A stretch of 64,000 bases of DNA, from positions 1-64,000 of the forward strand of contig JBEKXL010000008.1 of assembly GCA_049512075.1 (NCBI GenBank). Reading direction: 5' to 3'. Both the position numbers and the translations under genes were made by a program. Source of the stretch: Candidatus Bathyarchaeia archaeon. GTDB lineage: Archaea > Thermoproteota > Bathyarchaeia > Bathyarchaeales > Bathycorpusculaceae. Numbering within the stretch: position 1 is the first letter of the stretch; the number at the start of each line of letters is the position of its first letter. The notes beneath the pieces were generated by a model, which saw only the letters and a program-made list of their open reading frames with translations, ran no database searches and was not told the origin of the DNA. Below are positions 5,144-25,027 of this stretch, one piece after another.

Positions 5144-6382
5144 ATGCACAACGAGGATTTGACGTCGGATTTTCCAACAGAAACAATCAAAGAAGGCAAC
5201 GTGAAGGCCCTTGTCCCGAAGCTTGAAGCCTTTGTAAGGCTACCCTCCGACTACGCGCCTTCAAAAGCCCCCGTTTTCTACAACCCAGTCATGGAATTGA
5301 ACCGTGACTTAGCGGTTCTGGCTCTGCAGGCCTATCAAAGAACAGTCAGCCATGAAATCGCCGTGTGTGAACCCCTGACCGCCTGCGGGCTTAGAGGCAT
5401 TCGTTTCGCAGTCGAAGTGGAAGGCGTCAAGAAGGTGGTAATGAACGACATAAGCGAAAAAGCCTTTCGTCTCGCCAGCTTCAACGTGCAATCAAACGGA
5501 GTGACCAGAAAGGCAACTGTGAAGCATGAGGAAGCAAACCTTCTTCTGAGCCGCTACAGCGCACCGTACAGGCGATTCGACGCAATGGACATTGATCCCT
5601 TCGGCTCCCCAGTGCGCTTCCTTGACTCTGCCCTCCGAGCCTTGCGGGACGGAGGCTTCATAGCCATGACAGCAACAGACATGGCACCATTGTGCGGAGT
5701 GCATCCAAGGGCATGCATGAGGAAGTACGGTGGAAAACCCTTGAGAACAGAATACTGCCACGAACTGGCCGTGAGACTCTTGGCCGGTTGCTTGGCCACA
5801 ACGGCAGCAAAGCAAGACATCGGCGTAAACGTGGTCTTCAGCCACCGAGCAGAACACTATGTCAGAACCTGTGCGACGACAAAATACGGCGCCAAAAACG
5901 CTGATGAAAGCCTCAAAAACATGGGATACGTGTTACACTGCTTCAAGTGTTTCCACAGAGAAAAAGAGAGCATGTTTGCAGTTCAACGTTCAGACAGATG
6001 CAGCGAATGCGGCTCAAAACTCAACATCGCCGGGCCACTGTGGCTTGGCAGACTGTTTGATTCGCGATTCGTTGAACTCATGGAAAACGAAGCCAACCAG
6101 CGAAAACTTGGGCTTGGGAGGAAAATACAGAGAATGCTTGCCATAATCAAAACTGAAGTCGAGGCACCAATTACTTATTACGTAGTGGACAAGTTGTGCG
6201 ACTCCTTGAACCTTCCTGTCCCACCAGTCAAAAAGGTGATTGAAGCCTTGACAAGAGAGGGCTTTCAAGCCTCTCCAACGCACTTCAGTTCACGCGGGAT
6301 AAGGTCAAATGCGCCTGCTTTCAAATTAAGAGAAATCCTGCCCAGCCTGGTAAAACAGAGCATCAAGCAGAATCGAGTTTGA
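5144..6382 (+). CDS. trm1: tRNA (guanine-26,N2)-dimethyltransferase
   Basis: VFYNPVMELNRD, GLRGIRFAVE, DIDPFGSP, TATDMAPLCG, GPLWLG, PTHFS. Confidence 0.97.
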   Translation: MHNEDLTSDFPTETIKEGNVKALVPKLEAFVRLPSDYAPSKAPVFYNPVMELNRDLAVLALQAYQRTVSHEIAVCEPLTACGLRGIRFAVEVEGVKKVVMNDISEKAFRLASFNVQSNGVTRKATVKHEEANLLLSRYSAPYRRFDAMDIDPFGSPVRFLDSALRALRDGGFIAMTATDMAPLCGVHPRACMRKYGGKPLRTEYCHELAVRLLAGCLATTAAKQDIGVNVVFSHRAEHYVRTCATTKYGAKNADESLKNMGYVLHCFKCFHREKESMFAVQRSDRCSECGSKLNIAGPLWLGRLFDSRFVELMENEANQRKLGLGRKIQRMLAIIKTEVEAPITYYVVDKLCDSLNLPVPPVKKVIEALTREGFQASPTHFSSRGIRSNAPAFKLREILPSLVKQSIKQNRV

Positions 6383-9476: not shown

Positions 9477-11174
9477 TTGAAGACTGAAAAAATCTTGGTG
9501 ACCTCTGCTTGGCCGTACGCGAACTACCTTCCCCACGTGGGCACGGTCATGCAATGTTTGTCTGCCGATGTTGTTGCAAGATACTACAGGTTGAAAGGCG
9601 AAGATGTGCTAATGGTGAGTGGGTCGGATGAGCACGGAACTCCAACTGAAGTTGAAGCTGTAAGGCTAGGCATCTCACCAAAGCAGTTGACCGACAAGAA
9701 CCATGCGAAGATAGTTGAATTGTTCGGGAAATGGGGTCTCTCTTTTGACAAGTACACGCGCACCGAAAACCCCGTGCACAAAGAGTTCGTGCAACAGCAC
9801 CTGATGAAAATCTACAACAGGGGTTACATTTTCACTCAGGAAACAGAAATGCTGTATTGTGAAAAGTGTGACCGCTTCCTGCCGGACAGATACGTTGAAG
9901 GAAAATGCCCATACTGCGGTTATGAAGGCGCACGCGGAGACCAGTGTGAAGCGTGCGGACGGTTACTCGAGACAACCCTCTTGATCGAACCTTACTGTGC
10001 AATCTGCGGAAGCAAACCCGTCAGAAGAAAAACCACTCACTGGTACTTTGATCTGCCAAAATTCTCAAACGAAATCAGCAAATACCTTAATGGCAACAAA
10101 CGTTTGCCAGACAACGCTAGAAACTTCAGCCTGAGCCTGGTGAAAGAAGGATTGAAACCCAGAGCGGTTACAAGAGACATCAGCTGGGGCATTGCAGCAC
10201 CGTTTCCAGGAGCCGAAAACAAGAGCATATACGTCTGGGTTGAAGCCGTCTTAGGGTACGTTTCGGCAACGATTGAATACTTCAAGAACAGCCATGAAAC
10301 AGAAAGATGGAAAGAGTACTGGTTTGACAAGAAATCCAAGACCTTATACTTCATCGGGAAAGACAACATTCCCTTCCACACTATAATCCTTCCAGCATTA
10401 CTCCTAGCATCAGGTGAAGATTACAACTTGCCATGGAACGTCTCCACAACGGAGTTCCTCCAGTTCAAGGGCAAAAAACTCTCCAAAAGCCACAGAATCG
10501 GCATATTTAGCGACGAGGCGCTGGAGCTTTTCCCCGCTGACTACTGGCGTTTCTACCTCATCGCCACGAGGCCCGAGACCAAAGACTCAAACTTTTCATG
10601 GGAGCTATTCATAGAAAAGGTCAACGGAGATCTGAACGACACTTTCGGCAACTTTATTCACCGAACACTGACGTTCATCAGCACGCAGTTCAACGGGGAA
10701 ATTCCCAGACTTGAAAAGCCCGATGAAGATGCTGAACAGACTCTCAATGCTCTGAAAGATAAAGTGGAGACAGTGGCCAACGAGATTGAGAATTGCAGGC
10801 TGCAATCTGCCGCAAACATCGTTATAGGCATCAGCCGCATCGGAAACCAGTACCTGAACGAGAAGGAACCATGGAAGCTCATAGAAGAGAACCGAAGCAA
10901 GGCCGCAAACATCTTCAACGTAGCGGCACAGATTGTCAAAGCCTTGGCAATAGTTTCGGCTCCCTTCATCCCGTTTGCCGCTGAAGAAATCTGGAAAACC
11001 CTTAACCTACCAGGAACCGTCCACGAGCAGGAATGGGATGAAGCTTTAAGGCCGGTGCCACCTGGGCACAAAATAGTCAAGCCGAAGCCTCTGTTCAAGA
11101 AGATAGATGTTGACGAGGAAGAGCTGGGAAAGAGACTAGAAAAGATCAGAGCGAACTTGGCAAAAGCTGCTTGA
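9477..11174 (+). CDS. metG: Methionine--tRNA ligase (no C-terminal tRNA-binding appendix)
   Basis: TSAWPYAN, PHVGT (HIGH-like), GSDEHGTP, Zn knuckles, GKDNIPFH, KLSKS. Confidence 0.97.
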   Translation: MKTEKILVTSAWPYANYLPHVGTVMQCLSADVVARYYRLKGEDVLMVSGSDEHGTPTEVEAVRLGISPKQLTDKNHAKIVELFGKWGLSFDKYTRTENPVHKEFVQQHLMKIYNRGYIFTQETEMLYCEKCDRFLPDRYVEGKCPYCGYEGARGDQCEACGRLLETTLLIEPYCAICGSKPVRRKTTHWYFDLPKFSNEISKYLNGNKRLPDNARNFSLSLVKEGLKPRAVTRDISWGIAAPFPGAENKSIYVWVEAVLGYVSATIEYFKNSHETERWKEYWFDKKSKTLYFIGKDNIPFHTIILPALLLASGEDYNLPWNVSTTEFLQFKGKKLSKSHRIGIFSDEALELFPADYWRFYLIATRPETKDSNFSWELFIEKVNGDLNDTFGNFIHRTLTFISTQFNGEIPRLEKPDEDAEQTLNALKDKVETVANEIENCRLQSAANIVIGISRIGNQYLNEKEPWKLIEENRSKAANIFNVAAQIVKALAIVSAPFIPFAAEEIWKTLNLPGTVHEQEWDEALRPVPPGHKIVKPKPLFKKIDVDEEELGKRLEKIRANLAKAA

Positions 11175-11858: not shown

Positions 11859-12965
11859 CTAACTTTTTTCCATTTGGTAAAGGCCCAGGTCTAGATTCGA
11901 TGGTTTTTCGGGTTCTGCGTAAGGTTCCAAGTTGAAGAGCTGAGGCGCTATTGTGCCGAAGCCACTCAGTATATGAGGAGAGTTCACCCCAGTCATAACC
12001 AGAGTTACTCTTAGCTTGCCGTTCTGCTTTGGATTCACCCTTGCCCCCCAAATCACCATGGCACTACAGTCCATCATCTCGGTCACTATTTCACCAACAC
12101 GGTTTGCCTCTTCGATTGTCATCTGATCGTCACCAGTGACGTGCACCAGGGCTCCCGTGGCTCCTGCATAGTCGACATCTAACAACGGTGTCCTCAGAGC
12201 ATTGCGCACCGCCTCCTCTGCCCTGTTCGGTGCATCAGATTCGCCGACTCCAACGACGGCCACCCCTCCACGGCTGACTATGGTCTTGAAGTCCGCAAAG
12301 TCTAGATTAATCAAGCTCGGAGTTGAAATTGTCTCAACGATGCCCTTGATCATGTTTGCCAGGACTTGATCCGCGACTCTGAACGCTTCGCTTATCGGTA
12401 GCTGCGGCACGAGTTGCATCAACTTGTTGTTATCAATAACCACAACCGTATCGCACCTTCTTCGCATCTCGCTCAGAGCAACTGCCGCGCACTCCTTCCT
12501 GCCTTTCTCAATTCGAAACGGCGTGGTTACAACGCCGACGGTGATCGCTCCCTTCCGCCTGGCCATGTCAGCGATGACCGGCGCCGCACCCGTCCCCGTT
12601 CCACCGCCCAAACCGGCTGTTATGAACGCTATGTCGACGCTTGAAAGCATATCTTCGACACGATTCTTAGACTCCTCGATTGCCTCCTTGCCAAGCTTCG
12701 GATCGCCACCGGCGCCCAGTCCCTTAGTGAGTTTCTCGCCTATCAGCACCTTTTGATTCGCCTTCGAGACGTTCAGATGAAGAGCGTCGGTGTTTATTGC
12801 AATGCACTCCGCACACGCTATGCCCGCCTCCATCAACCGTGTCACGGTGTTGTTTCCCGCCCCGCCGACACCGATAACCACTATTCGACAGCAACCAGGC
12901 TGTCTAATTCCTCCATTTCCAGTAAAATGCCAGCTGTATTTCAGAGCGTTTTCAGCCGGGTGCAT
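11859..12965 (-). CDS. ftsZ: Cell division protein FtsZ
   Basis: GVGGAGNN, AINTD, GLGGGTGTGAAP, INLDFADF T7 loop; ATG at 12965 follows the upstream RHH stop. Confidence 0.97.
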   Translation of the reverse strand: MHPAENALKYSWHFTGNGGIRQPGCCRIVVIGVGGAGNNTVTRLMEAGIACAECIAINTDALHLNVSKANQKVLIGEKLTKGLGAGGDPKLGKEAIEESKNRVEDMLSSVDIAFITAGLGGGTGTGAAPVIADMARRKGAITVGVVTTPFRIEKGRKECAAVALSEMRRRCDTVVVIDNNKLMQLVPQLPISEAFRVADQVLANMIKGIVETISTPSLINLDFADFKTIVSRGGVAVVGVGESDAPNRAEEAVRNALRTPLLDVDYAGATGALVHVTGDDQMTIEEANRVGEIVTEMMDCSAMVIWGARVNPKQNGKLRVTLVMTGVNSPHILSGFGTIAPQLFNLEPYAEPEKPSNLDLGLYQMEKS

Positions 12966-15373: not shown

Positions 15374-16423
15374 CTACTGTGGTCTTCGTAACGTGCGCAT
15401 CCTCGGTTTGCGAGCAACTAGGGCAAGCGCCGAGAGGGCTAGCAAGGCCATGTAAAGCGGGAAGGGACTTGCTGGCTTATCTGCAGTCTGCAGAACGAAT
15501 GAGTAGCCTCCGACAGGTTGGATAACGTTTCCCACCCGGAAGTTGACCACACCCGAATAGACTTGTTGGTCCAGTTCCACGGTCGAGTAAGCAGTCCAGA
15601 CTCCCAGGCTGAAGTTAAGTTGGGGCACTTTGAAGCTTATAGAGGCTATCCCATTTTGATCTGTGGAGGACTCACCGAGAGTAACGGTGTTATTGAGCGG
15701 GTCTACAACCTGAAAGGCGACCAGCTTGTTTGGGACGGGATCTCCGTTGAAAGTTACACGAGAATATAAGATAACTGTGTCACCTAGCGCGAACGTATTC
15801 TTGTTAGCATACAGGCTCAGGAGGCCAGGTCCGGGGTCGGGTCCAACTGAGTTCCAGAAACATATCGCGCCGACACTGTCGCATAGGATGGACATTCCCG
15901 AAGAACCCAGCAAGGTGACTTGGCTAAAAGCTATTGTGCTTAGAATGCACGAGGTTGATGCCTTAACCACCTTGAAACTAACGCGGACCAGAGTTCCGTT
16001 GCCGCTCAGTGGAGCTTGCGAACTTGCAAGCGACACGTTGACTTTCAGAAATCCAAGGGATCCGACTGCTTGGTATTGGAAACTCGACTTAGGAGGTGGG
16101 GGAAAGAATGATTGTTGAAGGATTTGGGAAAAGCTCAGGAAGGAAGAATTGTAGATGATTGTAAATCTGACAGCTTTCAAGTTTTGCGCGTTGGTGATGT
16201 CTACGGAAAAGTTGTAGTCCTCACCGATTCCTTGAGCAACGTAAATCGGGGGCGCAATACTAATATTTACGGTTGTCTGCCCCGCAGTAGCCAAATTTGA
16301 GCTGCCAATCAATCCGAAAAAAGACGGGAGCAAGACCGCAAAAAGCAGGGGGAAAAACTTGCGTAGCAAGCCTCTCAAAAGCCATGAAGGTCGTATCGCT
16401 CGGACAGTCCTACGTGTCAACAT
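15374..16423 (-). CDS. Membrane-anchored cohesin-domain surface protein
   Basis: Signal peptide; cohesin-like (FSVDITNAQNL..FTIIYNSSFL..LSGNGTLVRVSFKV); Ig/MG2-like domain; C-terminal PVGG, TM helix and basic tail. Confidence 0.8.
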   Translation of the reverse strand: MLTRRTVRAIRPSWLLRGLLRKFFPLLFAVLLPSFFGLIGSSNLATAGQTTVNISIAPPIYVAQGIGEDYNFSVDITNAQNLKAVRFTIIYNSSFLSFSQILQQSFFPPPPKSSFQYQAVGSLGFLKVNVSLASSQAPLSGNGTLVRVSFKVVKASTSCILSTIAFSQVTLLGSSGMSILCDSVGAICFWNSVGPDPGPGLLSLYANKNTFALGDTVILYSRVTFNGDPVPNKLVAFQVVDPLNNTVTLGESSTDQNGIASISFKVPQLNFSLGVWTAYSTVELDQQVYSGVVNFRVGNVIQPVGGYSFVLQTADKPASPFPLYMALLALSALALVARKPRMRTLRRPQ

Positions 16424-16657
16424 GATCTATCTGATCCTCAGGTCTTTCACGCTCTCTGCACGAGAACCGTGGAACAGATGTTGCGAGTGACTATTCTCAA
16501 ACATATCCTGGGTTCGTCCACCTGATATTAAGCAGGAAAACCGGAGCAATAAACATTCTGGAATATTCCTCTATTCAGCAGTGGACGCAATAAAGGTGTA
16601 AAAAAGGGCGCGCCGTCGAAGCCTAAAATGCTTTAGCACATATAAAAGAAAGAATGC

Positions 16658-16867
16658 GTGGTGTATCGAATGGTTGAGTTGAAAGCACTTGATGATGCTA
16701 TCTTTGACTTGTACTGTCGTCTGGGCAGTGTCGCCGACCATGAAAAAGAGTTGTTCATTTCTTCGGGACGAAACGTCAGAAAGGCTCTCGGCGAGATAGG
16801 TGAGTTGCGAGCGAGGGTGCGAAGCGTGAAGCGCGCGCAAATAGAACCTTTCTATTTCGCAAGGTGA
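16658..16867 (+). CDS. Small hypothetical protein
   Basis: Coiled-coil-like 65-69 aa ORF after a TATA-like element. Confidence 0.45.
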   Translation: MVYRMVELKALDDAIFDLYCRLGSVADHEKELFISSGRNVRKALGEIGELRARVRSVKRAQIEPFYFAR

Positions 16868-17173
16868 AAGCAAGGTTCGCCACGATGGAAAAAGGCGAGT
16901 TTTGAAGGATAAAAACAGTTTGTCAATACAGCATTCTTGAGAAATGGAGAGAGACCAAGGTTAAAGTGAAGCCTATACACTCTTCTTTTTCAAAACTCTT
17001 CTAATGAGCCTATGAGTATAATCATGTTAATATTCTAGCTAATATGTGCGCTGAGTGTTGTTGCTTTTGCCTTCGATGAACAGCTTTGACGTTTCAGCCA
17101 GGCTCGTTCCTCAGCAACTCCTTCTTTGCGAAAAAAGAAAAAGGGGGTTGCGCGGGAGAAATGACATCGTATT

Positions 17174-17500
17174 TCAATGGACTCGGGAGATAATGTAATC
17201 GTTCACAGTTTGAAGAAACGACTCTTCTAGTTCTATGCCGTAATGTTCTGCTAGAACGAAGATTATGTAAAGCAGATCTGAGAGTTCAGTGGCCAGCATC
17301 TCCTTTGTTTTGGGTTTTTCAGGCGGCTTGAACCCTTCAAGCCCTTTAACCACGGCGGCGACCTCTCCAGCTTCTTCCAACAGGTCAGTAACCATTACGA
17401 ACGGTGTCCATGTCCTACTCCGCTCAGGGTCGAGCTTGTCGTTGATTTTCCTAAAATTCTTCCAACAGAGATGCTGAGCATCGCGCAAAGTCACAGACAT
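17174..17500 (-). CDS. MazG-like nucleotide pyrophosphohydrolase
   Basis: LLEEAGEVA...ELSDLLY motif; GGTGA RBS before ATG at 17500. Confidence 0.9.
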   Translation of the reverse strand: MSVTLRDAQHLCWKNFRKINDKLDPERSRTWTPFVMVTDLLEEAGEVAAVVKGLEGFKPPEKPKTKEMLATELSDLLYIIFVLAEHYGIELEESFLQTVNDYIISRVH

Positions 17501-17560
17501 ACGAATCACCCGCGGAGATTTGTGGGACTGGTCTAATAATGGTTTTCCAGACATGAATTC

Positions 17561-18685
17561 TCAGGGGATTATCTCGCAGCCATTATATTTCATATATTCA
17601 AAATCCTCTATTCGAACTTTCTCTCTTTTGATTAGTTCTTCTATCCTAGGCATTTGCTCACGGACAGCTTGTATCAAGTTCCTCACAGTATCACAGACGT
17701 GAGAATACGCCTCTTGGCTCCAACGTTTGGTAAGGGTCGCGTACAAGCATCTGCCCCCACACAGATTGAGTGCGCCGCATTGTGTGCATGGTTCGCCAAC
17801 GTCAATTTTCTTCAGTTTCAAAGGATCTGCATTACTGATGTGACCGAGATAGTAGTCTTTCATTCCCCACATCGTTGGACAGGGAATTATATATCCGTCT
17901 GTCTGGATGGCATAGTTGATCCATCCTCCACCGCAACGGAGAAGATTCTTGTCTTCTTTGTGAAGAAAGGAATGGGCCACGCCGAGGATTGGGTAAAGCC
18001 GAAGGACGATGCCCTCGTTTTCCATCGTGTCAACCCAGAACTTGACAAGTCTAGCAACTCCAGGGTTGTAACACTCACGGCTCCATCGTTCGAAGTCCCT
18101 TCGCGCAAAATCATTCTTCCAAAAACCCGCATTCAACTGCCAATGAATGGAAGAAAATGAAAAATCTCCGTTGTTCAAAAGCCATGTGACTTGCGCATAT
18201 ATGTCAGTTTGCTCCATAACCGTCATTCTGGCAATCAACTCGCCCTTGAAACCGTTTTGCCGTATCAATTTCAAGTTGCGGAAGACTTTTTGGAAAGTCC
18301 CTGTTCCTCGATAGTGGTCTGTTAGTGCTTCATCTCCATCTACAGAAACAAGTATCGTGTGGAAACGATTAACGTACGTTGGTTTCAGATTATCAAGTAG
18401 CAAACCATTTGTCTGAATCATGAAATGCTTGACCCTGACCTTGTCCATAATTCTCCTTATTTCTTCAGTACACAGCAAGGGCTCTCCACCATAGAAAGTC
18501 AAGACGCAGTCATTGTCCTGTTCACAGAAATTCCTGAGCAAATCAATGTCGTAGCCCATCTTCTTGGGCAACGCGTAATCAACATCATAACCTGAGAAAT
18601 CCTCATCCATATCGTCCAATGCTTCGCCAAAGCAGTATCGGCACTGTGAATTGCATTCGGTGGTAAGTATCACATGAAAGAACAT
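17561..18685 (-). CDS. Radical SAM/SPASM protein (TIGR04084/AF0577-like)
   Basis: CNSQCRYC, FYGGEPLL, QTNG; SPASM CGGG..PCP..CxxCxxxxxCGGRC; ends NGCEIIP. Confidence 0.9.
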   Translation of the reverse strand: MFFHVILTTECNSQCRYCFGEALDDMDEDFSGYDVDYALPKKMGYDIDLLRNFCEQDNDCVLTFYGGEPLLCTEEIRRIMDKVRVKHFMIQTNGLLLDNLKPTYVNRFHTILVSVDGDEALTDHYRGTGTFQKVFRNLKLIRQNGFKGELIARMTVMEQTDIYAQVTWLLNNGDFSFSSIHWQLNAGFWKNDFARRDFERWSRECYNPGVARLVKFWVDTMENEGIVLRLYPILGVAHSFLHKEDKNLLRCGGGWINYAIQTDGYIIPCPTMWGMKDYYLGHISNADPLKLKKIDVGEPCTQCGALNLCGGRCLYATLTKRWSQEAYSHVCDTVRNLIQAVREQMPRIEELIKREKVRIEDFEYMKYNGCEIIP

Positions 18686-18716
18686 GTTTCCCAATTGGAA
18701 GTAAGAATTCCCGCTC

Positions 18717-19949
18717 TTAAGCGTATTTTTCCTTGGTCTTCTTAGCCTTCTCAATATATCCCTTAAGCTCTCTTTCCTTAAGGTTCTTTTCAGGCAAGGT
18801 TTCAGGCGCGTACAGCAGAGGCAAAATTGCCAAGAACAAGAAGAGACTCGCCACAGAAAAAACGGCGGTGACAGAAACTGAAGCGACAATGTCAGGACCT
18901 ACAAGTTTTTGTAGGAGATTGGAAAAAAGGAGAGGAATACCACCGAGAGCATAGTATTTTTTGCTCGAGTTTTCATAGGCCAGATCTCCCCATAATGTCA
19001 TGAAGAACACCACTCCTAGCATACCCCAAGCAATTCCATCCACTACGGTGTAGAAGGACCAGCCAATAAATGACAGCGAAAAAATGCCCAACACGGCATA
19101 CCCCAGGCCCAGCATTATGAAACCAGAAATAACCACCACTTTTCGACCGACAGTATCACACAGGACACCACCTACAAGGGCAAAAACAGCAGTAAAGATG
19201 GTTTCGATTGTGGCAGATGCATTAACAAAACTCTCTCCAAAATGGCTGTTGAGAATCGGAACGCTCAAGTAATTTACAAGAGCAAACATAATCCATGCAG
19301 AAAAATACAGGAAAAAAGAACGCTTTCGAATTATGGTCATGTAGGAGGACGTTTTTTTAACGGCAGACCTTTCAACTGGGTTAAGCAGAATGAATACAAT
19401 CAATCCAACAAACCTCAACGCTCCCAAAGTGCCAAATTGCGTTCGGTAGTCCAAGGGCTCAATAATCATCGCCGAAATGAAAATGCCAACAAAAATAGCA
19501 AAGAATACAATAGCGCTCACACGACCTCTATTCTCTACAGCCGTGCCTTCAGTCAAATATTCCATGCTAGCTGGCATACCAAAACCCAAAGTGGCGCCCC
19601 AGAGAAAAGCCACAAAACCAACCCAAAAAAAGTTCCCCATGTCGATTGCCAAAGGTATCATGGAAGCCACCGCGCCAGAGGCCATCCAAATCTCTAAGAA
19701 ACGAAGGTTTGCCGTTCCTCTGGGAAAGAAGGCTCCTATTAGGGCAGCTGTTGCAGTAGCAGCAGCGTTAATGACCAGAATCAAGAGATTTTCGTAATAA
19801 CCTATACCTGATGCGATCTTACTTAACACAGTGGATGATATAAAAAACCAGATTAGCCCACCAGAGACAAGAACTATTAGTGAAGAAAGGTTTTTCCCAC
19901 TTAACCCTAGATTTGATCGAAAGACTCGACTCAACGTGGTCAATGGCAT
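18717..19949 (-). CDS. MFS transporter
   Basis: About 12 TM helices, ENRGRVS, GVLCDTVGRK motif A, APETLPE. Confidence 0.9.
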   Translation of the reverse strand: MPLTTLSRVFRSNLGLSGKNLSSLIVLVSGGLIWFFISSTVLSKIASGIGYYENLLILVINAAATATAALIGAFFPRGTANLRFLEIWMASGAVASMIPLAIDMGNFFWVGFVAFLWGATLGFGMPASMEYLTEGTAVENRGRVSAIVFFAIFVGIFISAMIIEPLDYRTQFGTLGALRFVGLIVFILLNPVERSAVKKTSSYMTIIRKRSFFLYFSAWIMFALVNYLSVPILNSHFGESFVNASATIETIFTAVFALVGGVLCDTVGRKVVVISGFIMLGLGYAVLGIFSLSFIGWSFYTVVDGIAWGMLGVVFFMTLWGDLAYENSSKKYYALGGIPLLFSNLLQKLVGPDIVASVSVTAVFSVASLFLFLAILPLLYAPETLPEKNLKERELKGYIEKAKKTKEKYA

Positions 19950-20021
19950 CGTTAGAGCCTATATATTACTATTACAGATAAAACCTTTGGCAAAGTCATT
20001 CTCTGCTGTTGCTCTGCAGAA

Positions 20022-20037
20022 CAGAAATGTTTTTAAA
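20022..20037 (+). promoter_or_regulatory. BRE/TATA promoter of the small peptide gene
   Basis: CAGAAA-TG-TTTTTAAA, about 25 bp upstream of a leader with tandem GGTGA RBS motifs. Confidence 0.6.
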
Positions 20038-20080
20038 GTAATAGTGTAGAACACATATACAGGTGAGAAAGGTGAAAAAT

Positions 20081-20122
20081 GTGAGACGCAAACCTATTAG
20101 AATTTTTGGTTGGGGCAGATAG
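20081..20122 (+). CDS. Putative precursor peptide MRRKPIRIFGWGR (ComX-like; in-frame alternative GTG starts at 20063 and 20072)
   Basis: GTG AGA CGC AAA CCT ATT AGA ATT TTT GGT TGG GGC AGA TAG; GGTGA 5 nt upstream; Trp third from the C-terminus; converges on the prenyltransferase gene. Confidence 0.65.
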   Translation: MRRKPIRIFGWGR

Positions 20123-20124
20123 AC

Positions 20125-21156
20125 TCATTCCTGTCCTATTTTTATGTCCTCGTAGATTGGATCTAGCAAGTGGCTCAATAATTGCGCTGCTTTCCTCTCT
20201 TTAAGAATCTTCAAACTTGATAGAGCCGTCTTCTTCAGTTCATCCATATACTTCTTCAGTTCTTTGATCCCTTCACTGCGTGAAATAATGTTCACTATTT
20301 TTCGCGAATCGCTGTCCGATAATTTCCTTTTCTTAAGTATTGATAAAACTTCATTCTTAACGTTCATGTCTCTGAAAGCAAAGAGCAAAGGTAGTGGGAG
20401 GCATTCCTTTTCCTTCCTGTTCTGTAGTTCTTCAGGTTCATAAATGTCTATGAATTCATCGCGTATCATTGTGAGCACGCATAAAAGTCTTCCGAAAATT
20501 CCTAGCGCGTCCTCTTCTGCTTTGCTGCCCCCGCCAACAATTGCTCCTATTCTAGCATGCATTTCCGAACATCCCGATTTTTGCGTGACTATTTTCATCA
20601 AGTCTTCTGGCACTAAATTGAAGTTACCTCTTAGGTTAACTTCACTTGCAACGCCTGTTCCAACTTCAAACAAGGCTTCTTTCACCATGTCAGCTATCTC
20701 TTGTCTTTCTTCGACACGAAAATGCAGGATGGCCTCATTCAAATGCATCAAACCCTCGTAGAAAAGAACGTCTCCAGCAAGTATTGCCATATCTTGTCCA
20801 TATTTGCCATAGAGAGTAGGCTTGCCTGCTTTCGTTCCTTGTTTGTCAATGACATCATCGTGTACGTCCATTGCTCCTCTTAGCAATACCAGTGATGCGC
20901 CAAGCCGTAATGTCTTGTCTGGTTTTCCTTTGACTGCTTTGCAAGCCAATGCCATCAAGCCCGGATATTCCACGTCAAGCCACACTTCTTGTACAAAGTA
21001 ATCTAGTGCTTCGCGAACGTTGCGATTCTCAATGTCTTCTTCAAGTATGATTTTCTGTGCCACTTTGAATGCTGGCTTGCCATATCTGCAAAGCAAACGG
21101 TGCACTTGTTGAGCTGTAAGCAGGGCTTTCATTGTGCGTTTCGTCTCGCACTGCAT
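20125..21156 (-). CDS. Divergent polyprenyl-synthetase-family protein (ComQ-like prenyltransferase candidate)
   Basis: FARM HDDVID and AILAGD are present; GKRxRP and RRG are absent; second motif degenerate (IRDEFID). Confidence 0.85.
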   Translation of the reverse strand: MQCETKRTMKALLTAQQVHRLLCRYGKPAFKVAQKIILEEDIENRNVREALDYFVQEVWLDVEYPGLMALACKAVKGKPDKTLRLGASLVLLRGAMDVHDDVIDKQGTKAGKPTLYGKYGQDMAILAGDVLFYEGLMHLNEAILHFRVEERQEIADMVKEALFEVGTGVASEVNLRGNFNLVPEDLMKIVTQKSGCSEMHARIGAIVGGGSKAEEDALGIFGRLLCVLTMIRDEFIDIYEPEELQNRKEKECLPLPLLFAFRDMNVKNEVLSILKKRKLSDSDSRKIVNIISRSEGIKELKKYMDELKKTALSSLKILKERKAAQLLSHLLDPIYEDIKIGQE

Positions 21157-21405
21157 GATTCTGTCATATAAGTACTACATGTTTAAAAGTTCTTAGCTCA
21201 TCGCATATTTCGCTATTCGTATCTACCAATACTTGCACCTTGTTTCACGCACTTAGCGCGCGCGCTAAAGCGTATAGCAACAACACTCCTGAAAAGTGCA
21301 GTCGAATACATTCAGAAAAAAAAGGAACAAGGCAGTTTTGCACGTTAATTCAACGCGCGCGCAAAGAAACGGAATGCTCCCGTTTGGATCATGGTTTTAT
21401 AGGTG

Positions 21406-22398
21406 TCAGAGATCCTCAAGAGTCGAAGACGCGAAGCTTAGCAGTTGATCTCTCAAGGTCTTGTTTCTTACCGTAGACGTTACACCCACGGCTTCAGCGG
21501 CGAGTTCTTCCATATGTTTCTTTAGTTTTCCCGCGTTCTTGGCCTCGAACACCGCGTCAACAAGAGCATCCACGTCCCTGTCTGCATTCTCTTTTGCCAG
21601 CAGCTTTTCAATCTTTTTCTTTGATTCCGCATCTTGCATGGCGTACAGAATTGGAATGGGCAAGTATTCGCTCGTGACCCGATGATTCAGTTCCTCGACA
21701 TCGAAAACATCTACGAACTCTTCTCGCAGAATAGCTAATGTTCCCAGAATTCTCCCATACCTGGCCAATGTTTCAACTTCTTCATGTGTCCCCCCACCGA
21801 TTATGGCTCCGATTCGCATGTCTCCTTCGATGCTCGCTGCCTTCATTTTCACAATTTCCAGATACTCCTCCAATGGGGCATCAGCTTTGTTCTTCAAGCT
21901 CAGCTCCAACGCGTGTGCGTTGCCGAATTCATACAGTGATTGTTTGATGGTTTCGAAAACTTTTGCCCTCTCCTGATGTGACTCTCCTAGTGATTTTCCA
22001 AAGAGCGTGAATCCTTCTATTAAGAAGGCGTTTCCTAGAAGAAGTGCTATTTCTTCTCCGAACTTGCCAAGAACTGTAGGTTCGCCATGCTTCAGTTCTG
22101 ATTTGTCGATTATGTCATCATGTATATCAAAAGCTGCAGCTATCATGGCCAGTGCGGCCTGAAATGGAATTGCTACCTGCGGGTCTCCGCGAACCGCTTC
22201 AAATGCCACGGCAAAGAGCCCTGGATGTGTAACATCGTTCCAGCGTGAAACATAATATTCCAGTGCATCACGCAGTTTCCTGTATTGGATATTTTCCGAG
22301 AGAATTGTTCTCTTGGCGAATTCCAATCCGTTTTTGCTTTTTTTCGCGAGTTCTGTCAAAACTATTTCGGATTGCTTTCTGGCTTTGCTACGGCTCAT
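21406..22398 (-). CDS. Second divergent polyprenyl-synthetase-family protein
   Basis: FARM HDDIID, ALLLGN; RRG replaced by KHG; second motif LREEFVD. Confidence 0.85.
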   Translation of the reverse strand: MSRSKARKQSEIVLTELAKKSKNGLEFAKRTILSENIQYRKLRDALEYYVSRWNDVTHPGLFAVAFEAVRGDPQVAIPFQAALAMIAAAFDIHDDIIDKSELKHGEPTVLGKFGEEIALLLGNAFLIEGFTLFGKSLGESHQERAKVFETIKQSLYEFGNAHALELSLKNKADAPLEEYLEIVKMKAASIEGDMRIGAIIGGGTHEEVETLARYGRILGTLAILREEFVDVFDVEELNHRVTSEYLPIPILYAMQDAESKKKIEKLLAKENADRDVDALVDAVFEAKNAGKLKKHMEELAAEAVGVTSTVRNKTLRDQLLSFASSTLEDL

Positions 22399-22463
22399 GA
22401 TTTATTACATTGCTTGCTCGTTCTATTTAAAAAGTGGCTGCCGCATGTGTACACATACTTGGC

Positions 22464-22832
22464 TTATTCCAAGTCTCGTCCTTGTATCTGCTCTTCCAGT
22501 ATTGTATTGTAAGTCCTGAGGTATTGTTCGCCTTTTCTTGTTATTGTGTACACTTTTCTCGTTCTTCCGCCGTGTTGTTGTTTTTGGCTTGTAAGGAAGC
22601 TTTCACGCTCCAAGGCATTAAGTAACGGGTAGAGTGCTCCATGTCTGAGTTTTACGCCGAATTTTGTTTCTGCCTGTTTCTTTATCAAGTAGCCCCACAT
22701 TGGCTGGGTCCGGATGAGTCTTAGCATTTGGATGTCGAGCAGGTTTCTGGTGATGCGTTGTACAAGTTCCTGTTTGTAGGCTTCTGCCAATTCTTTCACG
22801 TTCTTGTTATGTCCTATTCTGTACTGGTTCAT
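22464..22832 (-). CDS. PadR-family transcriptional regulator
   Basis: PMWGYLI, GALYPLLNALE, RTRKVYTITRKG. Confidence 0.92.
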   Translation of the reverse strand: MNQYRIGHNKNVKELAEAYKQELVQRITRNLLDIQMLRLIRTQPMWGYLIKKQAETKFGVKLRHGALYPLLNALERESFLTSQKQQHGGRTRKVYTITRKGEQYLRTYNTILEEQIQGRDLE

Positions 22833-22874
22833 GTTTCGGCTTATTAGAGTTACGTTGGAAGTGGAGGTTTCAAT

Positions 22875-22920
22875 ATGTTTTCTTATGTTTTCTTATGCTT
22901 TCTTATGCTTTCTTATGTCT
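22875..22920. repeat. 10-bp tandem repeat TCTTATGYTT x4 between divergent PadR genes
   Basis: tcttatgttt tcttatgctt tcttatgctt tcttatgtct at 22881-22920, preceded by a partial unit. Confidence 0.9.
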
Positions 22921-22970
22921 GATGTAAGCATGAACCTTTATAGGGTAGTTTAGGGTTTATAGAGACTCAA

Positions 22971-23025
22971 GATATGTCATACCGAGGACATATCGTATCC
23001 ACGTCCAACAAACAAACTGTTGGAC
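22971..23025. promoter_or_regulatory. Two inverted repeats, candidate PadR operators
   Basis: GATATGTC-N8-GACATATC (22971-22994) and GTCCAACA-N7-TGTTGGAC (23003-23025). Confidence 0.6.
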
Positions 23026-23053
23026 AAATAAACACAAAAGAAGGAACAACACG

Positions 23054-23470
23054 ATGATGAACAACACAAAAGAAGTTCAGGCCAAACTGATGAAAGGCCT
23101 GCTGGACCTGATAATACTCCAATTCCTAAACGAACAGCCCGTGCACGGCTACCAGATAATCACAAAAATCCGAAAAACCTTCGGAGTCTACTTCGGCCCA
23201 AGCACCATCTATCCTCTTCTGGGAACACTGGAGAAAAAGAGGTTCGTGAAAAGCGAATGGGACATGAGCACTGAAAGACCGAGAAAAGTTTACAAACTGA
23301 CCACTGAAGGCCAGAACCTGCTGAACTTCACAGAAGACTCGCTCAACTTCATTTGCAGAAAAATAGGCACACCCGGAGTATCCAAGAACGACATGCCAGA
23401 AGCGACCATTCAACACTCAGCACTTCGCCCCTTCCTGAGAAAACTCGAAGAACCGAAACCAATAATGTAG
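23054..23470 (+). CDS. PadR-family transcriptional regulator
   Basis: KGLLDLIIL, PVHGYQII, STIYPLL, RPRKVYKLTTEG. Confidence 0.94.
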   Translation: MMNNTKEVQAKLMKGLLDLIILQFLNEQPVHGYQIITKIRKTFGVYFGPSTIYPLLGTLEKKRFVKSEWDMSTERPRKVYKLTTEGQNLLNFTEDSLNFICRKIGTPGVSKNDMPEATIQHSALRPFLRKLEEPKPIM

Positions 23471-23641
23471 AGTCCCACCCCCCACTCTTTTGATCACCCC
23501 ACAGAATGAAAGGCCCAACAAGCTTGGAGTCGTTAAAAGCGGAGACGACGCAATTCGCGAACAATCCAACCTTACCCATAAGTCATCTTCAGCCCAAACC
23601 GAAGCAATAACGTCGGCTTCGCCAAGATGACAATACATCCC

Positions 23642-25027
23642 CTAACTTCTTAGTCGATCTACCACTTGACTTCTGATCTTGGTCAACCTGTTGCTCAGTT
23701 CAACAGGGTAAGAAGATGGATCTCTCAGTCTTTTGTACTTCTCTGGAAGCTCTGAAAGATTCTCCAAAGTTGCCTCTCTTATCTCTTGAAGCCTTGGCAT
23801 TTCACAGGTTATCTGGCCATCTTTCATGACCTTCCTCAAAAGACGCTCTCCCTCAATCTCTTCATCCTCCAAACCGATTATGTCCTTGACACATTTTCTG
23901 TTCTCGTCTCTCTGCCTAAAGATTTGTTTCTTTCCTGGCAACGTCACTTTGCCCTTACTCAATTTCATCGTAGGAACGAAATTCCCTTCTTCAACTTTCC
24001 CCGACAATTTGTACACAACGTCTACGTAGGGCCTATCCAAGGACGTACTCATCCTCGTTCCGACGCCGAAAGCATCAATTTTCGCTCCCTCTTTCACCAG
24101 TTCCTCAATGACGTACTCATCCAGGTCGCCGCTTGCAAATATCTTAACATAATCCAAGCCGCGGTCGTCCAGAACCCGTCTCACCTTCTGACTTATGCTC
24201 AGCAGGTCTCCACTGTCCAGCCTGACGGCGTTTAGCCTGTAACCTTTCTTCTCTAATTCCTTCGCAATGATGGCCGCATTTTCTGCACCTTTCAAATCGT
24301 CGTAGGTGTCTATCAAGAAAGTGGAAGTCTGAGGAAAGGTTTTAGCAAAGGCTCTGAACGAGTCTACCTCCTTGTCGAAGAACATTACGTAGGAATGCGC
24401 CATGGTCCCGAACAAGGGGATACCGTATTTCATACCGGCTAGCACGTTGGAAGTTCCTTCGGCCCCTGCCAGGTAACTGCATCTCGCAGCTTTCATCCCG
24501 GCATCTGTTCCCTGTGTTCTTCTCAAGCCGAACTCTATCACGGATCTGCCCTTCGCCGCACGGACAACCCTTGAAGCTTTGGTGGCAATCATAGTTTGAA
24601 GGTTCACCGTGTTTAGAATGAAGGTTTCAACAAGCTGAGCCTCTATTATCGGCGCAGTCACCCTGATTAAGGGCTCTTCAGGAAAAACTATTGTTCCTTC
24701 AGGAACCGACCACACTTCCCCAGTGAACTTGAAGTCCTTCAGATACTCCAGGAACCCCTCGCTTAGTCTCTTCTCTCTCAGGTAGCTGATGTGTTCCTCA
24801 CTGAATTTCACGTTTTCGAGGAAAAGCAACACTTGTTCTAGCCCAGCGAAGATGAAGTAGGATCTGTTCGGCGGCAACTTTCTTATGAACAGGTCGAAGG
24901 TTGCAGTTTCGTTTCTTCCGTTTTCAAAATAGCTGGCACACATTGTCAGCTCGTAAAAATCAGTTAAAAGGCTCATGTTTGCTTCGTCGACAAAGTCAAA
25001 CTGCGGTTTTTTCATCTGTCCAGCCAC
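23642..25027 (-). CDS. pncB: Nicotinate phosphoribosyltransferase
   Basis: LLTDFYELTM, EFGLRR, GTMAHS, LIDTYD, VRLDSGD, FGVGT. Confidence 0.96.
   Translation of the reverse strand: MAGQMKKPQFDFVDEANMSLLTDFYELTMCASYFENGRNETATFDLFIRKLPPNRSYFIFAGLEQVLLFLENVKFSEEHISYLREKRLSEGFLEYLKDFKFTGEVWSVPEGTIVFPEEPLIRVTAPIIEAQLVETFILNTVNLQTMIATKASRVVRAAKGRSVIEFGLRRTQGTDAGMKAARCSYLAGAEGTSNVLAGMKYGIPLFGTMAHSYVMFFDKEVDSFRAFAKTFPQTSTFLIDTYDDLKGAENAAIIAKELEKKGYRLNAVRLDSGDLLSISQKVRRVLDDRGLDYVKIFASGDLDEYVIEELVKEGAKIDAFGVGTRMSTSLDRPYVDVVYKLSGKVEEGNFVPTMKLSKGKVTLPGKKQIFRQRDENRKCVKDIIGLEDEEIEGERLLRKVMKDGQITCEMPRLQEIREATLENLSELPEKYKRLRDPSSYPVELSNRLTKIRSQVVDRLRS

Follow-up and report, generated by a model that had tools for sequence, protein, structure and literature searches.

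A conserved micro-gene beside polyprenyl synthase-like enzymes and a transporter gene in Bathyarchaeia: a candidate peptide prenylation cassette

The window analyzed here comprises 64,000 nucleotides (positions 1 to 64,000 of the forward strand) of contig JBEKXL010000008.1 from the assembly GCA_049512075.1 of a Candidatus Bathyarchaeia archaeon. The subject is an open reading frame (ORF) of 13 codons, here termed the micro-gene, which lies between a gene for a transporter of the major facilitator superfamily (MFS) and two genes, PS_A and PS_B, for polyprenyl synthase-like (PS) enzymes with the fold of the isoprenyl diphosphate synthases (IPPS). Comparison of related loci shows protein-level conservation of the micro-gene across the Bathyarchaeia and in another class of their phylum. 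It also shows that PS, peptide type and MFS gene are inherited as a unit, which close relatives exchange. PS gene, micro-gene and MFS gene form a three-gene cassette. It is tentatively proposed that the PS-like enzyme would prenylate the peptide encoded by the micro-gene, the MFS protein would export it and PadR proteins would control the locus, the product being a strain-specific signal or an antagonistic peptide.

Conservation of the micro-gene

The stop codon of the micro-gene lies 2 nt from that of PS_A, with which it is convergent, and the micro-gene is divergent from the MFS gene; alternative in-frame GTG starts at 20063 and 20072 would extend the peptide to 19 and 16 amino acids, respectively. 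PS neighbourhoods were taken from 19 related genomes and compared with the window, which gave an initial set of 20 loci. Species-representative genomes were then scanned with an alignment of PS, yielding 226 relatives, of which the best 80 loci were examined, nearly all from records of metagenome-assembled genomes of Bathyarchaeia. These two sets (loci L032-L050 and L051-L130) share some genomes. Duplicates of identical sequence were removed for the PS tree and for the palindrome, codon and identity-correlation sets; locus L010 (2.9 kb) was excluded from the analysis.

An antisense ORF opposite PS, in most cases with its end 0-4 nt away from the stop of PS, was present in the window and in 19/19 of the relatives' loci (20/20). 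Under a strict rule (ATG-type start, at least two Lys/Arg, the motif [PV][IVPA]R and a tail of at most nine residues), the micro-ORF was called in 56 of the 80 further loci, compared with 1/80 on the sense strand and 1/80 in shuffled sequence. The 24 loci missed by this rule carry, by eye, mostly core variants (Met, Thr or Lys) or one residue fewer. A relaxed rule recovered the micro-ORF in 87 of 99 loci, duplicate loci included, and missed 12; the call at L100, one of the 87, looks false, and this locus was dropped before codons were counted.

Among the 76 distinct micro-ORFs, the conserved Arg is encoded by all six codons (AGA 26, CGA 19, AGG 9, CGT 8, CGG 7, CGC 5), all four codons occur for the core Pro, and the entropy at third positions is 1.5-1.8, compared with 0.18-0.72 at second positions. 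The start codon is ATG in 73 of the 76, the window copy having GTG, and a word resembling a Shine-Dalgarno (SD) sequence precedes 63 of the 76 starts by 4-16 nt, compared with 19.6 in shuffles (maximum 29). This pattern of codons, third positions, starts and SD-like words indicates conservation at the protein level, as a terminator or an antisense RNA would not yield it. A sequence-only reading of the window, which had proposed the micro-ORF as an unannotated gene with its own promoter-like and SD-like signals, is borne out in this respect.

An untranslated micro-ORF, conserved as a DNA or RNA element such as an antisense RNA or the terminator of PS with its T-rich sense strand, has very little probability. 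Its Lys-rich N-terminus does correspond to T-runs on the sense strand just past the PS stop, where an archaeal terminator would be expected, but the full sets of Arg and Pro codons fall at conserved residues, the third position dominates the variation, ATG, stop and SD-like word are conserved, and both the sense-strand and the shuffle control stayed at a single call each. Comparison of loci thus recovers genes of 12-22 codons that gene callers overlook.

Peptide types and enzyme clades

The window peptide has a basic N-terminus, a Pro-Ile-Arg core and a six-residue tail with Trp third from the end. Across the family the peptides are 12-22 amino acids long, with an N-terminus rich in Lys/Arg, a core [K/V]-Pro-[Val/Ile/Met]-Arg (rarely with Lys for Arg) and a tail of 3-8 mostly hydrophobic or aromatic residues. 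The invariant feature is Pro-x-Arg, which the sequence-only reading had not described. That reading had suggested a scan beside PS homologues for short basic ORFs ending in a Trp motif; the scan did find a conserved micro-ORF, but Trp in only 39 of the 76 distinct tails (any of Phe, Trp or Tyr in 64 of the 76).

A FastTree tree of 93 PS proteins was used for clade assignment, and in it the peptide type tracks the enzyme clade. Regarding the well-supported PS_A clade (33 rows), Trp was present in 29/29 called tails, whereas in the PS_B clade (32 rows) it was present in 4/27 tails, with a tail Pro in 17/27; over all called peptides in this tally Trp occurred in 40/78. Trp is therefore a clade feature and not a hallmark of the system. 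The suggestion that the tail Trp is the prenylated residue remains attractive for the PS_A clade and fails as a rule for the whole family.

Beside PS_B the window holds a decayed second micro-ORF in the same position and frame as the micro-ORFs of relatives, ending 3 nt from the PS_B stop. Aligned locally with the corresponding micro-ORF regions in L039, L052 and L055, it scores above the best of 100 shuffles; no start codon follows the upstream stop, and Trp stands in place of the core Arg. Given this decay, only PS_A is accompanied by an intact peptide gene in the window, whereas PS_B is itself intact but has no functional one of its own. Genomes G030 and G295 likewise have a tandem pair of PS genes and one micro-ORF.

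The synthase-like enzymes

PS_A and PS_B match PF00348 with 77 and 90 bits (cut-off 27) and share 33-35% identity in two alignments. The best NCBIfam match is IdsA at 106-110 bits, which is below its cut-off of 468, and no equivalog-level match to a named synthase was obtained. A third, canonical polyprenyl synthase (205.5 bits) is encoded on another contig of the same genome, so that PS_A and PS_B are extra copies. A search of a cluster atlas gave only clusters named 'polyprenyl synthetase family protein'.

In 85 sequences (both paralogues and 83 relatives) the motif H-D-D-x-x-D is kept, D100, D101 and D104 being invariant, and a Thr, a Gly, a Glu, an Arg and the last Asp of the second motif are also invariant; a Lys is conserved as well. 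The first Asp-rich motif reads DDVID in PS_A (20845-20859) and DDIID in PS_B; the second Asp-rich region reads DEFID in PS_A (20446-20460) and EEFVD in PS_B, with the family consensus R-[DE]-[ED]-F-[IV]-D. The region-I motif of the site for isopentenyl diphosphate (IPP) is replaced in PS_A (residues 57-66, 20959-20988). Chain-elongating synthases carry the basic region-I motif GGKRxRP and an RRG after the first Asp-rich motif. Where the canonical synthase of this genome has RGGKRWRP and RRG, the PS_A/PS_B family has W-x-D-x-x-H-P-G and K-H-G or K-A-G. Six residues are deleted at the Lys/Gly-rich loop of the canonical enzyme, and the C-terminus is acidic, reading L-E-D-L in most members. In farnesyl diphosphate synthases, the basic residues lost here bind the diphosphate of IPP, and those retained bind the allylic donor. 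From the retained donor-binding motifs and the loss of the basic IPP-binding residues we infer that the donor site has been kept and the acceptor site rebuilt. The placing of the micro-ORF beside a polyprenyl synthase homologue and an MFS gene in the sequence-only reading is upheld: it is tightly linked to both, the enzyme being devoid of the IPP-site motif.

The AlphaFold2 (AF2) model of PS_A has a pLDDT of 95.3. Its top Foldseek matches are geranylgeranyl diphosphate (GGPP) and long-chain synthases and the indole prenyltransferase Ord1, the first being the GGPP synthase 1wy0 (TM 0.78), and Ord1 chains are among both the sequence and the fold matches of the PS enzymes. A predicted complex of PS_A with the C-terminal tail of the MFS protein (residues 378-410) scored 0.16 against a mark of 0.32, which is no evidence either way.

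The sequence-only reading had further likened these enzymes to ComQ, with its pseudo second motif. In the accessible text of the ComQ study (PMC5331326), ComQ requires a pseudo second Asp-rich motif (pseudo-SARM) of the form NDxxx or GDxxx, with a non-acidic first residue, and the available part of the StheQ preprint reports the same need for ComQ-type enzymes; the region here reads [DE][ED]xxD, which differs from this form. It is accordingly very improbable that the locus encodes a strict ComQ/ComX homologue, with a ComQ-family enzyme prenylating the conserved Trp of a pheromone precursor. The intact first Asp-rich motif, the adjacent peptide with Trp third from its end and the constant Trp of the PS_A-clade tails would suit such a homologue, but the pseudo-SARM signature is missing, as are Trp from 37/76 peptides, a precursor of leader length and genes of the ComP/ComA type at the locus. 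Membership in the ComQ family is not supported by these sequences; the resemblance would be one of architecture and probable mechanism.

Exchange of the cassette between conserved flanks

Among members of the same genus, amino acid identity is high in the flanks (NAPRT 86-95%, PadR2 90-96%, PadR1 73-86%, rSAM 70-90% and mazG about 87%; rSAM denotes a radical SAM gene of the SPASM type), compared with 49-58% for PS_B and 39-44% for MFS in the cassette. When the DNA is aligned with that of L044, most flank bins of 150 bases are 92-99% identical (75-86% in a few). At about 22555, within the C-terminal portion of PadR1, the value drops to 59-75% and remains in this range through PS_B. Between 21605 and 19186 no identity is detectable; towards the 3' end of MFS it is weak, and at the start of rSAM it is again 83-96%.

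The same contrast was found in further pairs of loci, namely L066/L086 (PadR2 90%, rSAM 89%, PS 38%, MFS 40%), L063/L104 (rSAM 85%, PS 36%, MFS 38%), L070/L105 (rSAM 82%, PS 33%, MFS 39%), L074/L126 (rSAM 81%, PS 36%, MFS 38%) and L092/L129 (rSAM 80%, PS 34%, MFS 43%). PS identity was below 45% in 43 of the 71 pairs with an rSAM identity of at least 75%. Over 1128 non-independent pairs from 48 loci, the Spearman coefficients of the identities were 0.72 for PS-MFS, 0.17 for PS-rSAM and 0.19 for MFS-rSAM. PadR1 is conserved in its winged-helix part and divergent in its C-terminal helix; PadR2 is conserved throughout. That cassettes are swapped among genomes nearly identical elsewhere points to interactions, social or antagonistic, among uncultured archaea of sediment and peat.

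The body of the MFS protein is only about 38% identical among relatives, unlike its tail (last 30 residues, 18720-18809), which is highly conserved and cytoplasmic and reads P-E-T-L-P-E-K followed by a charged helix ending in K-Y-A/Y. In some relatives an acidic linker of 40-70 residues is inserted before the same ending.

Contigs of run X2 covering window positions 16000-25000 showed an extra depth of about 250-290 over the flanks only (parts of mazG, rSAM, PadR1/PadR2 and NAPRT); these flank contigs carry many base differences and have loose ends at 18737 and 22546. The pattern fits a co-occurring, more abundant relative that shares the flanks and carries a different cassette, which contigs cannot prove.

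Two loci of the same genus are irregular. In L047 (G004) the spacer between PS and MFS (9926-10760) measures 834 nt, compared with about 130-200 nt elsewhere, and an extra rSAM fragment of 56 residues (12729-12896) lies ahead of the full rSAM gene, which suggests an insertion or rearrangement in the cassette. In G001 (contig C15, 28506-32092) there are in-frame stops in the PS match (4) and in the rSAM match (12), and the locus looks degraded or the contig of poor quality.

Occurrence outside the Bathyarchaeia

When 301 genomes of the phylum were searched with a profile, strong matches were obtained in other families, including 17 of the 25 genomes of family f24, which belongs to another class of the phylum. 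In 9/9 f24 loci a micro-ORF of related type directly adjoins the stop of PS, and an MFS gene follows in seven of the nine (L131-L135, L137 and L143). An MFS tail similar to that described above occurs in f24 as well. The f24 micro-ORF is less basic and has a Pro-[Val/Ile]-Arg core (Met-Ile-Arg in L134), followed by a hydrophobic residue and Trp; in four loci (L131, L132, L136 and L137) it is duplicated in tandem, the copies being about 85 nt apart and identical or nearly so. PadR and rSAM genes were not detected at the f24 loci examined. The cassette is thus a concrete candidate system of wide distribution, found in the Bathyarchaeia and in a second class of the phylum.

Directly upstream of PS in f24 lies a gene for a membrane protein (5200-6171(+) in L132), in which EExxxR, FxxxH and HxxxN occur in this order in 8/8 homologues. 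This succession of motifs resembles that of the CPBP/Rce1-like (CAAX-type) proteases (PF02517). The protein may be of this type, but these three short motifs are all that favours it and the other searches do not confirm it: Pfam gave no match even at E 10, hhalign against the PF02517 protein of the window genome gave a probability of 1.5%, Foldseek found nothing at E 0.001 or better, and the best VIA-align Z was 5.9 (best relevant row, 6u0o chain A, Z 5.5). A search for AmoA in the f24 and f39 genomes gave no matches, nor any in the controls, and is hence uninformative.

Proposed function and comparison with known systems

The locus consists of a gene for a 13-residue peptide, one or two IPPS-fold enzymes and an MFS gene, set between conserved PadR regulators and rSAM. 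In the proposed mechanism, the enzyme would bind an allylic prenyl diphosphate as donor and transfer the prenyl group to the peptide rather than to IPP. The acceptor in the PS_A clade would probably be the tail Trp, and some other atom in the clades without Trp; the basic N-terminus with Pro-x-Arg may act as a recognition or processing element. The MFS protein would export the product, putatively a strain-specific signal or antagonistic peptide. The TGT-N3-ACA palindromes would be the sites at which PadR proteins gate the divergent promoter, and the product of the cassette may be sensed by the C-terminal helix of PadR1, which is variable. Since the peptide is small enough to synthesize and the enzymes are soluble, this chemistry lends itself to direct testing.

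A more specific and rather unlikely version is that these are archaeal pherotype loci, at which each strain would make its own prenylated micro-peptide, export it through the cognate MFS protein and sense it through the C-terminal helix of PadR1. If true, Archaea would have here their first system of cell-cell signalling that is peptide-based and strain-specific, and the Trp-less clades would need a prenyl acceptor that is new for enzymes of this fold, perhaps the invariant Arg. The literature listings turned up no ribosomal prenylated peptide and no peptide pheromone system for Archaea, and the word archaea is absent from the main text of the StheQ preprint.

Several observations weigh against prenylation of the peptide. 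With 37/76 tails lacking Trp and 12/76 lacking any aromatic residue, no single side-chain acceptor fits all peptides, and a length of 12-22 amino acids is far below that of ComX-type precursors. The second motif is not of the ComQ/StheQ/Ord1 type (NDxxx in ComQ) as given in the accessible parts of the respective sources. No such micro-ORF was found at the PS homologues of families f39 and f46 (0/5 loci) or at the extra Bathyarchaeia PS paralogues in G307, G190 and G224 (0/5 loci). Since PS_B is intact despite its decayed micro-ORF, the enzyme may not depend on a cognate peptide, and the covariation of peptide and PS could be plain linkage. Residue counts at the motif are circular, as the same motif was used to call the ORFs, which does not apply to the codon diversity.

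Part of these observations would be explained by the principal rival, in which the enzyme prenylates or makes a small molecule (or is terpene synthase-like), the MFS protein exports it, and the peptide, instead of being a substrate, is an accessory or regulatory protein that modulates, for example, the transporter or a PadR protein. PadR regulators typically respond to small hydrophobic ligands. This, the intact PS_B without its own micro-ORF, the existence of PS homologues without a micro-ORF, and an acidic second motif closer to metal-binding class I enzymes than to ComQ all speak for a small molecule. However, in two classes the micro-ORF lies directly against the PS stop (usually 0-4 nt away), the peptide type varies with the clade of PS, and a hypervariable tail suits a specificity determinant more than a housekeeping regulator. 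On balance the small-molecule explanation is considered unlikely, and prenylation of the peptide is kept as the working proposal.

The com locus also is a polymorphic module of enzyme and peptide next to conserved flanks, as is the cassette described here. ComQ/ComX of Bacillus subtilis and StheQ/StheX of Sphaerobacter thermophilus resemble the locus in having an IPPS-fold enzyme with an intact first Asp-rich motif beside a gene for a small peptide with a near-C-terminal Trp (here in the PS_A clade). They differ in that the present system is archaeal, its peptides have 12-22 instead of 55-70 amino acids, Trp is absent from about half of them whereas Pro-x-Arg is invariant, the partners are MFS and PadR proteins instead of a histidine kinase and a response regulator, and the genes are convergent and abut at their stops.

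Microcin C (mccABC) is made from a 7-codon precursor gene, with a modifying enzyme and an MFS exporter. It shares with the locus the tiny unannotated precursor gene accompanied by one tailoring enzyme and an MFS pump as a mobile, variable cassette, but its tailoring enzyme is an adenylyltransferase, and no such enzyme is present at the locus. The streptococcal short hydrophobic peptide/Rgg and ComS systems have precursors of about 17-25 amino acids, which are basic at the N-terminus and whose C-terminal part, hydrophobic or rich in Trp, is the pheromone. Their precursor is likewise encoded by an unannotated ORF divergent from its neighbour, and the peptide is sensed by a cytoplasmic regulator, but these peptides carry no modification, their regulators are RRNPP proteins and they are imported by Opp. 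The layout of a cluster for RiPPs (peptides made by the ribosome and modified after translation), with a precursor gene beside a tailoring enzyme and an export gene, is present here as to layout, the modification itself being predicted.

According to the accessible portions of the publications, ComQ, StheQ, PalQ and Ord1 are enzymes of the IPPS superfamily that prenylate Trp or indole, so that prenylation of peptides or indole by this fold has precedent. PalQ/PalX of Paenibacillus alvei and Ord1 of Streptomyces, which are all-alpha prenyltransferases, share with the PS enzymes the fold superfamily and an acceptor other than IPP (a C-terminal Trp or indole). In the same portions they differ in having no acidic second motif and no context of micro-gene, MFS or PadR.

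Radical SAM and mazG genes

The rSAM gene matches TIGR04084 with 313 bits (cut-off 225); literature listings for AF0577/TIGR04084 gave unrelated accession-like matches only. The listed ORF of 442 codons (17561-18889) overlaps the 3' end of MFS, which is an artefact of the open frame, since the proteins of relatives begin at a Met just before the CxxxCxxC motif; as these have about 374 amino acids, the most likely start is 18685 and not 18889. Identity among relatives is 55-90%, compared with about 38% for the cassette. The gene lies on another contig or far off in G021, G026, G040, G031 and G025, is present without a PS match in G027, G029, G033, G034 and G037, and was not found in the PS-bearing genomes G030, G032 and G024. 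By these comparisons the rSAM gene is part of the conserved flank and no obligate partner of the cassette. mazG and NAPRT adjoin the locus in close relatives only. The sequence-only reading had drawn in rSAM and mazG as genes that follow MFS; a constant association with the cassette is not supported for either.

These data bear on another rival, in which the rSAM/SPASM enzyme acts on the peptide to give a cross-linked RiPP and the PS-like enzyme is secondary. Aromatic-rich tails, an rSAM gene about 30 nt after MFS in 15/19 of the relatives' loci and a weak score with peptide-maturase models (e.g., PapB, 99 bits, cut-off 340) are in its favor. It is nevertheless improbable, as rSAM differs from the cassette in conservation, is often elsewhere or absent, is missing from the f24 loci, and has no N-terminal recognition domain, the protein starting directly with CxxxCxxC.

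Features of the locus

The genes that the sequence-only reading had named in the window (mazG, rSAM/SPASM, MFS, two PF00348 genes and two divergent PadR genes) were all recovered (Table 1), the PadR genes matching PF03551 with 65 and 69 bits (cut-off 27). The order common to the 19 related loci is PadR2, divergently PadR1 and PS, then MFS, then rSAM; PS and MFS are adjacent in 19/19, rSAM follows MFS in 15/19 and the PadR pair is present in 13/19.

Table 1. Coordinates of the genes and control elements of the locus in the window
Feature	Position	Strand	Remarks
mazG	17174-17554	-	gene call confirmed
rSAM/SPASM, family TIGR04084	17561-18685	-	31 nt after MFS; conserved flank, outside the cassette
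MFS transporter, 410 aa	18717-19949	-	divergent from micro-gene; body hypervariable, C-terminal tail 18720-18809 conserved
Divergent control region, micro-gene/MFS	19950-20080		layout conserved across loci
Second TATA-like element, for MFS	19975-19988	-	
Degenerate second palindrome	20015-20023		
TATA-like element TTTTTAAAG	20030-20038		micro-gene side
Palindrome GTGTAGAACAC	20044-20054		TGT-N3-ACA type
ATATACAG	20055-20062		inferred start region
SD GGTGA	20062-20066 and 20071-20075		latter 5 nt before the GTG of the micro-gene
Micro-gene	20081-20122	+	13 codons and TAG, GTG start; conserved antisense ORF after PS stop
PS_A, IPPS-fold enzyme (PF00348)	20125-21156	-	tail-to-tail with micro-gene
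Decayed second micro-ORF beside PS_B	21349-21402	+	from local alignment to relatives and translation
PS_B, paralogue of PS_A (PF00348)	21406-22398	-	gene intact, own micro-gene decayed
PadR1	22464-22832	-	N-terminal winged helix conserved; C-terminal helix (about 22467-22583) within the variable island
PadR1-PadR2 intergenic region	22833-23053		TGT-N3-ACA at 23018-23026; ATGT...ACAT palindrome at 22971-22994
PadR2	23054-23470	+	divergent from PadR1; 90-96% identity within the genus
Variable island (MFS, micro-gene, PS_A, PS_B, PadR1 C-terminus)	18700-22555		approximate borders, from the drop in DNA identity to a same-genus relative

Control regions

On the side of the micro-gene, the conserved layout upstream of the ORF consists of the SD-like word, ATATAC(AG), a GTGT-N3-ACAC palindrome and a TATA-like CTTAAG or TTTAAA. 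Beyond this TATA-like element follow a second TGT-N3-ACA palindrome, then ATACAG and a further TTTTAT element before MFS. A scan of the sequence for sigma-70 promoters and terminators, which is ill-suited to archaeal promoters, found nothing. TGT-N3-ACA occurs in 71 of the 73 distinct intergenic regions between micro-ORF and MFS (3.9 in shuffles) and in 24 of the 37 between PadR2 and PadR1 (2.4 in shuffles). The simplest reading is that it may be a shared operator for one PadR protein, and the control of the locus by PadR, as put forward in the sequence-only reading, is plausible on this account.

The PadR intergenic region also contains four tandem copies of a unit of roughly 10 nt (TTCTTATG[CT]T) at 22870-22925(+). 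Related repeats of the GCATA type are found at the same place in the PadR intergenic regions of relatives.

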